A DNA stretch of 63,585 bases, filler included, from Collodictyon triciliatum (taxonomy: Eukaryota), in assembly GCA_043381765.1 (NCBI GenBank). It is 21 parts of 21 records of this genome, joined end to end, with 100 filler letters (N's around TTAATTAATTAA, not from the genome) between each part and the next. Parts side by side here need not be neighbours in the genome. Positions count along the whole stretch, not along the records: positions 55,298 to 58,264 come from JBHJMP010007997.1; 20 more parts are not named here. One strand, written 5' to 3'. Every line of letters begins with the position of its first letter. The first letter of the stretch is position 1. The notes beneath the pieces are model-generated. The model searched no databases, was not told where the DNA came from, and saw only the letters and a program-made list of their open reading frames with translations. The translations under genes and the position numbers were made by a program. Shown here piece by piece: positions 55,298-58,264 of the stretch.

Positions 55298-58264
55298 GAA
55301 GAGTTGAAGAAAATTAAAGAACTGGACGAATTGGCTGTCACTCCGTTTATGATTTTCATGGCAGCCACCACCCTGCCGTCCATACTGAAGGAAAGAGCTG
55401 AGTCAAAATCAATAGAGAATAAAAAAATCACGAGAACAGATTTTCTGGACAGGTTTTCGAGAAGATGGTTCGAACGCGAAAGAGAAAAGCTTGAAAACAA
55501 TTTGTCGTTAAAGCAAAAAATGCCAGAAGATTTGGAAAGGCTGCTTTGGGTGAAGTGCAAAAAAATTGCAAAGTTGATGTATGAAATAGAACGAAAACCT
55601 TCGCTTCAATATTGCTACGTCGAAGGTGAACTACCAACTAACCCACAGTACGACGAATTTTTCAATCCTAATCCAGACCATATGATTAATGGTAAACGAA
55701 CTTACTCTGTCTTCGTATTGCGATGTGCACCCATTAAGAAATCTAGTGCCACAACATATGAGTTCTTCCACAAATCGCTCTACGAATTCTTTGCTGCTGA
55801 GAACATCAAAGATGAAATTAATAGTTCCGATGCGGAAAATAAAGATTCTGCCGAATCATCAACGGAAGCTCAAAATGCTGCAACGTCCTCTGAACCCGCG
55901 AATTCAAAGCATGGAGAATTTGATGCAAAATCACCAAGCACGATGCTGTCCCATGTTGTTAATTCCGTGATGAAATCGAAAGTTGCGACAAATATTGCTC
56001 TTGATAAAAAGCTTGAGCCTGCTATTCTGCTCAATCTGAGTAAAAAAGTCAACAAAGACAAAGCCTACAAAGACAATCTCTTTTCAATCATCGAGCAGTC
56101 CAAGATAGATGCAAGCAAAGCGCAAGCTGCGTCAAATGCCATCACAATTCTGAACTATGCTGACATTTCATTCAGTGGCATGGATTTCAGAGGGATTCAA
56201 ATTCCAAATGCCGACATGTCACAGTCTGTTGCTGATGGTGCTGACTTCACTGGTGCCAACTTGGAGGGTGTTTTGTTCTATAATGCGTGCATTTCAAACT
56301 GTGTTTTTGACAATGCGATTATGAAAGGCGTTAATTTTGGTCGCTTACCTTTGTTTTTGGGTCATAAAAGTACTGTCAATAGTGTTTGCAGTATTCAAGG
56401 ACCGAATGGTGAAAATTGGCTGGCTTCTGGAAGCGACGATAAAACAATACGTATCTGGGATGTAACCACAGGAAACCCAATCGAAATATTAAAAGGTCAT
56501 ACAGATTTTGTTAATTGTGTTTGCAGTATTAAACGACCGAATGGTGAAAATTGGCTGGCTTCTGGAAGTATGGATAAAACAATACGTATTTGGGATGTAA
56601 CCACAGGAAACCAAATCAAAACATTAGAAGAACATACAGAAGGCGTTACTAGTGTTTGCAGTATTCATGCGCCAAATGGTGAAAACTGGTTGGTTTCTGG
56701 AAGTGATGATAGAACAATATGTATTTGGGATGTAAAAACTGGAAGCCTTATCAAAACGTTAGAAGGTCATATGAAAGATGTCAATAGTGTTAGCAGCATT
56801 CAAGAACTGAATGGTGAAAACTGGCTGGCTTCTGGAAGTGGCGATAAAACAATACGCATTTGGGATGTAGAAACTGGAAGCCTTATCAAAACGTTAGAAG
56901 GTCATATGAAAGATGTCAATAGTGTTTGCAGTATTCAAGGACCGAATGGAGAAAATTGGCTGGCCTCTGGAAGTGGTGATACAACAATACGTATTTGGGA
57001 TGTAGGCACAGGGAATCAAGTCAAAACGCTAGAAGGCCATTTTGAAGGAGTTACAAATGTTTGCAGGATTCAAGCACCAAATGGTGAAAATTGGCTGGCT
57101 TCTGGAAGTTATGATAAAACAATACGCATTTGGGATGTAGTCACAGGAAACCAAATCAAAACATTAGAAGGTCATATAGATTATATTTGGAGTATTTGCA
57201 GTACTCAAGTGCTAAATGGTGAATTCCCTTCATTTGAATCGAATATAGAAGGGAAGAAAGGACCGATTGGTGAATATTGGTTGACCTCGGGAGGAAACGA
57301 CAGAAAAATTTGTATTTGGGATGTGGCCAGAGGAAACCATATCAAAACATTAGAAGGACACAGAGATGAAGTCAGAAGTGTTTGCAGTATTCAAGGACCG
57401 AATGAGGAAAATTGGTTGGCTTCTGGAAGTCATGATAAAACAATACGTATTTGGGATGTAGTCACAGGAGACCAAATCAAAACATTGGAAGGTCATACAG
57501 GTGAAATCAACAGTGTTTGCAGCATTCAAGGAACGGATGGGGGAAATTGGCTGGCTTCTGGAAGTGATGATAAAACAATACGTATTTGGGATATAGTTAG
57601 AGGAAAAGATATCAAAACCTTAGAAGGACATAAAGATGTTGTCACTAGTGTTTGCAGTATTCAAGGACGGAAGGGTGAAAATTGGCTGGCTTCTGGAAGT
57701 GATGATAAAACAATACGTATTTGGGATGTAGTCATAGGAAATCATATGAAATTGGAAGGTCATACAGATGTTGTCACTAGTGTTTGCAGTATTCAAGGAC
57801 CGAATGGTAAAAATTGGCTGGCTTCTGGAGGTGGTGATAAAATAATACGTATTTGGGATGTAGCCACAGGAAACCAAATCAAAACATTAGAAGGACATAC
57901 AGATGTTGTCACTAGTGTTTGCAGTATTCAAGGACCGAATGGGGAAAATTGGTTGGTTTCTGGAAGTGGTGATAATACAATACGTATTTGGGATGTAGCC
58001 ACAGGAAACCATATCAAAACATTAGAAGGACATACTGATGTTGTCACTAGTGTTTGCAGTGTTCAAGGACCTAATGGTGAAAGTTGGTTGGCTTCTGGAA
58101 GCAATGATAGCACAATACGTATTTGGGATGTAGCCACAGGAAACAAAATACACAGCCTGAAAAAATCAGAAGTGACCTACAATATAAAGAGCCAATTGGT
58201 CAAGAAAGATAAAACAGAAGTCATCGCAGTGTTCAATAGTACAAGTGATGCGATGAATATGATT
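55298..58264 (+). CDS. NLR-like NACHT(winged-helix)-pentapeptide-WD40 protein, partial at both ends
   Basis: Single open frame: TPFM, YEFFHKSLYEFFAA (NACHT winged-helix motif), AASNAITILN..SFSGMDFRGIQIPNAD pentapeptide region, 13 WD40 repeats. The P-loop lies upstream of the contig start and is not seen. Confidence 0.9.
56357..58156 (+). repeat. 135-nt coding tandem repeat (13 WD40 units)
   Basis: GHxxxVxSVCSIQGPNGENWLASGSxDxTIRIWDVxTG repeated 13 times; same consensus as 1636-2445. Confidence 0.95.
57225..57257 (+). mobile_element. Family A-like micro-insertion, in frame in WD40 repeat 7
   Basis: TCCCTTCATTTGAATCGAATATAGAAGGGAAGA between 18-nt direct repeats at 57207-57224 and 57258-57275 (13/18 identical); net +51 nt. 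Confidence 0.65.

Follow-up and report, generated by a model that had tools for sequence, protein, structure and literature searches.

The stretch of Collodictyon triciliatum DNA analysed here (the window; 63,585 nucleotides) is a chain of ~3-kb contigs with N spacers between them, drawn from an assembly of 75.4 Mb in 14,576 contigs (GCA_043381765.1). One entire contig, G000:C7997 at positions 55298-58264, holds part of a gene with a long array of near-uniform WD40 units (the array proper spanning 56360-58162). Taking all lines of evidence together, we consider it probable that this is a class-A gene of the STAND type (signal transduction ATPases with numerous domains), belonging to an expansion of two receptor classes that share one pool of WD40 units, are under selection at the top face of the propeller and sense foreign ligands. 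The features of the contig, all on the plus strand, are as follows:

55301..58264, +, one reading frame free of stops that runs off both ends of the contig; central part of a class-A NACHT-pentapeptide-WD40-Sel1 gene
55301..55810, +, C-terminal helices of the NACHT module, with the motif F-H-K-S-L-Y-E-F-F at their end
56020..56359, +, helical linker and pentapeptide repeats, class-specific and not homogenised (Pfam Pentapeptide, residues 286-348)
56360..58162, +, 13 WD40 units of 135 nt in an array, predicted to form a double beta-propeller sensor (13 Pfam WD40 stretches, AlphaFold2, Foldseek)
56369..56380, +, unit 1, hypervariable codons 4, 5 and 7 (in the d-a loop and where strand a begins), at the same offsets in every unit
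56435..56443, +, unit 1, codon 26 (hypervariable) and codon 28 (variable), on either side of an invariant Asp of the b-c loop
57170..57355, +, the divergent unit 7, whose a-b loop has 17 extra residues (model residues 292-315 have low confidence, pLDDT)
58163..58264, +, beginning of the tail behind the array, perhaps a cryptic blade (the model has short strands of low confidence here)

The preliminary description of this DNA reported 13 units on C7997 and six on the first contig of the window with one 135-nt consensus; our analysis confirmed both arrays (the six units at 1642-2448) and their common 135-nt period. Eleven of the 13 units are 45 codons long, unit 7 contains the 17-residue insertion and unit 10 is one codon short. 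C7997 was assigned to class A because paralogues with 81-100% linker identity have long open frames, and full-length class-A paralogues comprise about 2,000-2,500 aa in a single open frame. Walker A and B fall outside the contig, and the fragment itself has no match to Pfam NACHT. A near-identical counterpart of 55301-55810 comes after the Pfam NACHT domain in the paralogues L049 and L050, and through L050 this region aligns with the Mycoavidus protein P0017. The post-array tail runs into Sel1-like repeats in paralogues (Pfam Sel1, E 2.5e-35 in L044). A homologue search with the first 353 residues of the frame returned mostly generic pentapeptide proteins, and a search of RNA runs with C7997 yielded six runs, each sharing only 6-12% of the words of the contig.

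Two receptor classes with a common back half

As judged from sequence, the family has expanded within this lineage to about 100 loci, which fall into two classes with a pentapeptide-WD40-Sel1 back half in common. Class A, including the gene on C7997, is intron-poor and encodes a helical region, NACHT, pentapeptide repeats, WD40 and Sel1-like repeats in one open frame. NACHT (Pfam PF05729) scored above cut-off in L049 and L050, and the N-terminal halves of these two full paralogues gave no Pfam match to a HET domain. Named class-A homologues are proteins of Mortierellomycota, Glomeribacter and Mycoavidus (24-34% identity), and in the linker tree the class-A linkers form one clade (support 99/99).

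Class B, to which the first contig of the window belongs, is spread over about 25 exons. They encode DUF4062, a NACHT unlike that of class A and TPR repeats, and a large terminal exon carries the pentapeptide, WD40 and Sel1 repeats. The N-terminal halves of the two classes do not align (best E 0.11). In the class-B locus L038, DUF4062 is spread over two separate exons, each under the curated cut-off (E 3e-3 and 6e-5), and the RWG motif is present. Class-B genes are spliced and present in RNA libraries of three studies, whose contigs lie on L038 at 80% likeness and skip many of its predicted GT..AG introns; these contigs (four runs, one of them RNA by guess only) derive from paralogues or related strains. 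The closest named homologues are transcripts of Diphylleia rotans, with 54% identity over 1,211 residues. The features of the first contig are:

1..781, +, last TPR exons of a class-B gene of the DUF4062/TeTIR-NACHT-TPR type (from sequence, and from the same exons in paralogue models)
782..872, +, intron GT..AG, frame kept (read from sequence)
873..2841, +, terminal exon with helical region, pentapeptide linker, six WD40 units (1642-2448) and a single Sel1-like motif
1699..1701, +, TAG in frame within the first unit of the array, where other units have Trp

A splice equivalent to the one leading into this terminal exon was seen in the RNA-library contigs placed on L038. The in-frame TAG, which the preliminary description had overlooked, marks a broken copy, a null allele or a base error. 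Stops or a frame break within the array occur in three of 59 loci (this one, L005 and L060), consistent with gene birth and death.

Further observations concern the architecture of the two classes. Two NACHT-pentapeptide units stand in tandem within one 3,173-codon frame in L050/L051 (G000:C2561). Ten class-A and related frames (L043, L048, L049, L050, L053, L054, L056, L057, L061 and L102) have R/M-G-G-G near the 5' end, followed by N-x-S-S-R or C-x-x-S, an arrangement that we take to resemble a ubiquitin-type cut site before a myristoylation signal; two Hexamita homologues start directly with M-G-C. The class-B TPR repeats lie on uniform 126-nt exons, one repeat per exon (L038, 4391-5627), and are not visibly homogenised. 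L061 and D. rotans P0156 form a third, diverged NACHT-pentapeptide-WD40 lineage (100/99 in the linker tree) outside the homogenised pool, and L068 (G000:C1613), of class B but diverged, has at least 34 WD40 units of about 55% identity to the pool.

The size of the family was approached with an 18-nt motif of the unit, which has 607 exact matches in the genome compared with none for the reversed control, so that the unit repeat is not a chance finding. Since the motif is present in 338 of 658 sampled units, these matches scale up to about 1,200 units in about 100 loci, a rough estimate. Of 176 candidates from a unit query, 40 were scored and contained 399 matches, and with a linker query all 150 scored candidates matched (172 candidates in all). 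Units were found in 59 of the 61 stretches scanned. Four of the 658 units have a stop in the aligned unit, while 495 are full-length, lack stops and match the consensus at 70% identity or more (584 at 60% or more). Complete paralogue arrays contain 4-21 units. Of the class-A loci, 14 of 17 have 12-15 units, and of the class-B loci 21 of 26 have either 6-8 or 12-14, numbers that would be expected of one or two propellers. The units of C7997 and the first contig are 64-87% identical to the pool consensus, and the mean pairwise scaffold identity in the pool is 70%. For comparison, the criterion for high internal conservation is repeats more than 85% identical over at least 100 aa (Dyrka 2014), and HNWD repeats reach 80-100%.

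Evidence for selection at the predicted propeller top face and for exchange among units

Variation within the unit is concentrated at few sites. Among the 495 units, entropy exceeds 3.1 bits at codons 4, 5, 7 and 26 (hereafter the hot codons; 3.2-3.7 at the first three) and amounts to 2.3 bits at codon 28, while 31 of the 45 positions stay under 1 bit. The preliminary description had listed the residues found after GH, in V-x-S and in GS-x-D accurately, apart from omitting TDV (units 11-13) and TDY. The variation that it located after GH is real, but across the genome the first of these three positions varies only mildly, with Thr in 74% of the 495 units.

An AlphaFold2 model of the C7997 array (mean pLDDT, the predicted local distance difference test, 76.5; pTM, the predicted template modelling score, 0.51) has four strands per unit and places codons 3-5 in the d-a loop, codon 7 at the start of strand a and codons 26-28 in the b-c loop. 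The top Foldseek matches are double propellers (best match 2YMU; Apaf-1 at rank 5). The d-a and b-c loops make up the WD40 top face, with R1-2, R1 and D-1 as binding hotspots (Wu et al., PMC3419727), and by the pattern given there codons 5, 7 and 26 are the predicted R1-2, R1 and D-1 hotspots.

In the 18 stop-free units of the window, non-synonymous diversity at the hot codons is 0.55, compared with a synonymous diversity of 0.23 and a non-synonymous diversity of 0.13 elsewhere. A tree-free analysis of the 495 units gave 0.58-0.71 at the hot codons and a synonymous diversity of 0.26 elsewhere. The ratios of non-synonymous diversity (piN) to background synonymous diversity (piS) are 2.41, 2.78, 2.28 and 2.68 at codons 4, 5, 7 and 26, with locus-bootstrap lower bounds of 1.96-2.41, and 1.5 (1.25-1.79) at codon 28. 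The hot codons again ranked highest in 102 units from 13 further loci, with ratios of 3.1-3.8 over a background diversity that was lowered by picking these loci for likeness to one unit. In our own fixed-effects codon model (17 chosen sites under two trees and two kappa values; all 45 sites once), codons 5, 26 and 28 were positive in all four runs. Recombination violates the tree assumption of this model, and we therefore place more weight on the tree-free diversity result. With 447 residue combinations at the four hot codons among 495 units, our data support the view that diversifying selection drives the top-face residues apart, so that nearly every blade has its own predicted contact set. 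Codon 43 was rejected as a selected site, being on strand d and not positive in the codon model although its piN is raised; codons 3, 19 and 36 are near neutral.

The scaffold around these sites appears to be shared between genes and classes. Once six variable codons are removed, units of one gene differ by 0.156 on average, units of different A genes by 0.184, of different B genes by 0.178 and of different classes by 0.181, and the fixation index (Fst) of A versus B is 0.002. The flanks behave differently. Linkers have a proportion of synonymous differences (pS) of 0.63 between classes versus 0.45 and 0.29 within, and of non-synonymous differences (pN) of 0.30 versus 0.08, whereas the pS of units is 0.43 in all three comparisons (within A, within B, between). 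In the linker tree, class B falls with D. rotans (99/99) and not with class A, while 309 of 322 class-B units are closer to class-A units of their own genome (size-matched set) than to D. rotans units; only 50%-cluster representatives of D. rotans were compared, and closer paralogues could weaken this contrast. For only 22 of 245 class-A units is the nearest neighbour a unit of the same gene. We judge such counts to be weak because unit distances are star-like, and the case for exchange therefore rests on the contrasts of flank with unit and between species. Linkage between sites within the unit is near zero and declines with distance (rho -0.19, permutation p 0.0005), which suggests sub-unit exchange tracts, with recurrent mutation contributing. 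The exchange of repeats between loci that had been proposed at the outset is thus borne out, and it extends across two unrelated receptor classes. The evidence supports a reading of the 135-nt units as one gene-conversion pool across loci and both classes, which would keep the blade scaffold uniform.

Several results weigh against this combination of selection and pooling. Codon 4 was positive in only two of the four codon-model runs, and codon 7 in none and negative in two, its own synonymous rate being high. The earlier expectation of site-wise selection holds in that dN exceeds dS at the variable codons, but codon 7 does not pass when compared with its own synonymous rate. At the hot codons, synonymous diversity reaches 1.3-1.6x background, and the pooled ratio drops to 1.5-1.8 when the 70% identity filter is omitted (652 units). 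Mixing of units is likewise incomplete. On the unit tree, gene labels require 456 changes versus 521 when shuffled, class labels 139 versus 155 (8 of 200 shuffles were as low), and last units 11 versus 44. Units are not strictly grouped by gene or position, as had been predicted, but terminal units still show clustering by position. Strings of 99 nt do not recur among the arrays, so whole-unit copying was not caught, and exchange may be slow or proceed in short tracts. Several loci have also drifted out of the pool, to 55-70% identity.

Two further observations bear on sequence exchange outside the array. At the start of the Sel1-like tail (alignment columns 76-105), likeness between classes equals that within, and this seems to be a second tract homogenised across classes. 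The class-B loci on G000:C3072 (742-6262) and G000:C2032 (L071/L084 and L063/L083) share 5.5 kb of exons and introns with zero substitutions and one indel, with flanks 95-97% alike upstream and 85-97% downstream and with different arrays (8 and 13 units, respectively). This pair may represent a recent conversion tract, alleles, paralogues or assembly collapse.

Alternative explanations and proposed function

The mixing of units could have arisen falsely when short reads were assembled across repeats that are nearly identical. For Podospora arrays, Illumina assemblies are reported to be unreliable (PMC12222747), our assembly is in 14,576 contigs, and one locus pair has 5.5 kb free of substitutions. 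However, none of 1,727 77-mers and only 37 of 1,749 55-mers of the C7997 array recur in the 59 arrays tested, the first units, which adjoin the class-specific linker, differ by 0.139 between classes versus 0.147 and 0.122 within, and per-unit diversity is independent of unit order. We regard misassembly as highly improbable because no 77-mer recurs and the first units show no class structure. Judged by codon rates, codon spectra and stops, it is also very unlikely that the hot codons vary through a local mutator or templated process, like that of diversity-generating retroelements (DGR) or repeat-induced point mutation (RIP), or are merely unconstrained. Such a process would agree with the raised synonymous rates at codons 1, 4 and 7 and with the 62% T at third positions of hot codons. 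DGR variation, copied from a template repeat with the help of a reverse transcriptase, is adenine-specific and uses NNY codons, a pattern that the hot-codon spectra do not match: purine-third codons (TGG, GAA, ATG and AAA for Trp, Glu, Met and Lys) are common, while silent choices are mostly T. Codons 5 and 26 have a synonymous rate at background (0.4-1.7) and a non-synonymous rate of 3-38, and relaxed constraint is unable to raise piN above piS. Only one stop was found in 2,620 hot codons, and codon spectra and rare stops together make selection the better fit. A single, recent gain of a WD40 cassette that then duplicated fast in both classes, with no lasting exchange between them, appears quite unlikely as well. 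It would explain the star-like unit distances, with near-consensus units as the nearest neighbours of all, and the lack of a recurring 99-nt string among arrays. Yet linker and tail on the same exon are class-specific and have diverged more between classes than the units they flank. The class-B layout is common to D. rotans (1,211 residues, 54%), with which the class-B linker groups, and linkage within the unit is close to zero and weakens as distance grows. Even a single replacement of nothing but the array would amount to transfer across classes.

The identity of the ligand is a separate matter, since top-face selection is silent on it. The same pool and selection could serve recognition of the organism's own polymorphic proteins, either in conspecific allorecognition or in guarding, as by HET-E with HET-C. 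Recognition of this kind is the sole tested function of the closest analogue, in Podospora, but we think this alternative unlikely. The roughly 100 loci, with nearly all blades different, compare with roughly 10 NWD genes in Podospora, and given this repertoire size foreign ligands seem likelier than allorecognition. We know of no cell fusion in the Collodictyon lineage.

In our main reading, foreign-ligand sensing, the propeller would most likely bind variable ligands of bacteria, viruses or other cells. By analogy with STAND biology, a ligand at the propeller face would release the NACHT switch, whereupon the N-terminal effector would oligomerise. The class-B effector is plausibly a TeTIR-type NAD-cleaving enzyme (NADase), and the class-A head would be helical. 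A role as non-self receptors, as put forward in the preliminary description, would follow from architecture and selection. More tentatively, and with some doubt on our part, we posit that the family may constitute a still-recombining library of ~1,200 blades on two unrelated chassis, one with a putative NAD-cleaving head, and could represent a germline anticipatory repertoire in a unicellular organism near Diphylleia. If so, specificity selected in one class could pass to the other. The family would in any case offer a test system for whether single-celled eukaryotes use diversifying intracellular receptors and for how repeat exchange between genes is sustained.

Elsewhere in the window, five copies of a 105-nt repeat (95% match) lie within a 374-codon frame on the minus strand at 19493-20024, and two adjacent open frames of 337 and 245 codons occupy 3716-5467 of the second contig, also on the minus strand.

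Comparison with known receptor systems

In domain order, class A resembles NACHT-pentapeptide-WD40 receptors of Mortierella and Mycoavidus (10.1101/2021.12.02.471044; 10.1101/2022.03.16.484565). The proteins of Mortierellomycota and Mycoavidus cysteinexigens, together with homologues in Hexamita inflata, have the same order and are homologous across NACHT, with 26% identity over 617 residues between class A and Mycoavidus P0017. In the proteins inspected, the WD units look diverged and are without the G-P-N-G loop, and the Sel1-like tail is a feature of Collodictyon. Many class-A homologues contain an N-terminal Arm-like solenoid (PF23948), which has no Pfam match in class A and aligns only weakly (E 12).

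Class B alone resembles the TeTIR (DUF4062)-NACHT STAND family, which comprises TEP1, NWD1, NWD2, TTC41 and NPHP3 with WD40 or TPR tails (10.64898/2026.09.21.753143). The likeness consists in DUF4062 with an RWG loop directly upstream of NACHT and in the TPR repeats. Class B differs from the members described there in having TPR, pentapeptide, WD40 and Sel1 in series, and its NADase head is putative. The same 45-residue unit type and class-B layout occur in Diphylleia rotans (EukProt P0030, P0031 and P0032), which also has a diverged NACHT-pentapeptide-WD40 type (P0156). D. rotans units, compared as cluster representatives, are 40-53% identical to one another versus 70% in Collodictyon, and strong homogenisation therefore looks lineage-specific.

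Homogenised hypervariable sensors of NOD-like receptors (NLRs) are already characterised in fungi and surveyed widely elsewhere. Conserved repeats have been reported in NLRs from all over the tree of life (PMC4986451; PMC13449251), variable hotspot sites are described in highly repetitive WD40 proteins including those of protists (PMC5587647), and brown-algal ROCO receptors with leucine-rich repeats diversify by exon shuffling (PMC11378527), whereas the Collodictyon arrays lie within one exon. The parts of PMC5587647 and PMC11378527 covered report no WD40 pool common to two NLR classes. Our literature search, with subscription papers and supplements outside its scope, found no worked-out protist case of homogenised hypervariable NLR sensors, although the taxon lists in Fig. 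8 of PMC13449251 and the dataset of PMC5587647 may contain such cases.

The closest parallel is found in the HNWD/NWD receptors of Podospora anserina (HET-D and HET-E as well as HET-R), which likewise combine NACHT with WD40 repeats; these are of high internal conservation in Podospora and may be so in Collodictyon. Paoletti et al. (PMC1805685) found selection there at two codon pairs that flank conserved residues in the same loops (codons 7, 9, 25 and 27). We map these to codons 5/7 and 26/28 of our unit, where they flank the same conserved Val and Asp, and codon 4 is an extra site in Collodictyon. The two systems further have in common that repeats are exchanged between genes, even those of different NACHT clades, that some copies are broken, that there are probably two propellers, and that evolution is concerted within and between genes, with units grouping by species. 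Podospora HNWD/NWD alleles also differ in repeat number, for which the loci on C2032 and C3072 may be a candidate parallel, and their non-self recognition triggers cell death. The contrast of linker with unit is also the argument used for Podospora, applied here across less related chassis. The label HNWD/HET-E-like, chosen in the preliminary description, fits the working principle but not the genes themselves, which are without a HET domain, have a NACHT from other lineages, and possess a pentapeptide linker, a Sel1-like tail and a 45-residue unit. Long reads show that the repeats of most Podospora genes are strongly differentiated, with limited exchange (PMC12222747), while class structure is almost absent in the Collodictyon unit pool. 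As far as sequence and analogy can tell, the Collodictyon system works like the Podospora NWD receptors, yet is not HNWD. What sets it apart is a pool of about 1,200 units in about 100 loci versus 69 units in about 10 genes, about 17x that of Podospora, which crosses the boundary between two unrelated NLR classes.

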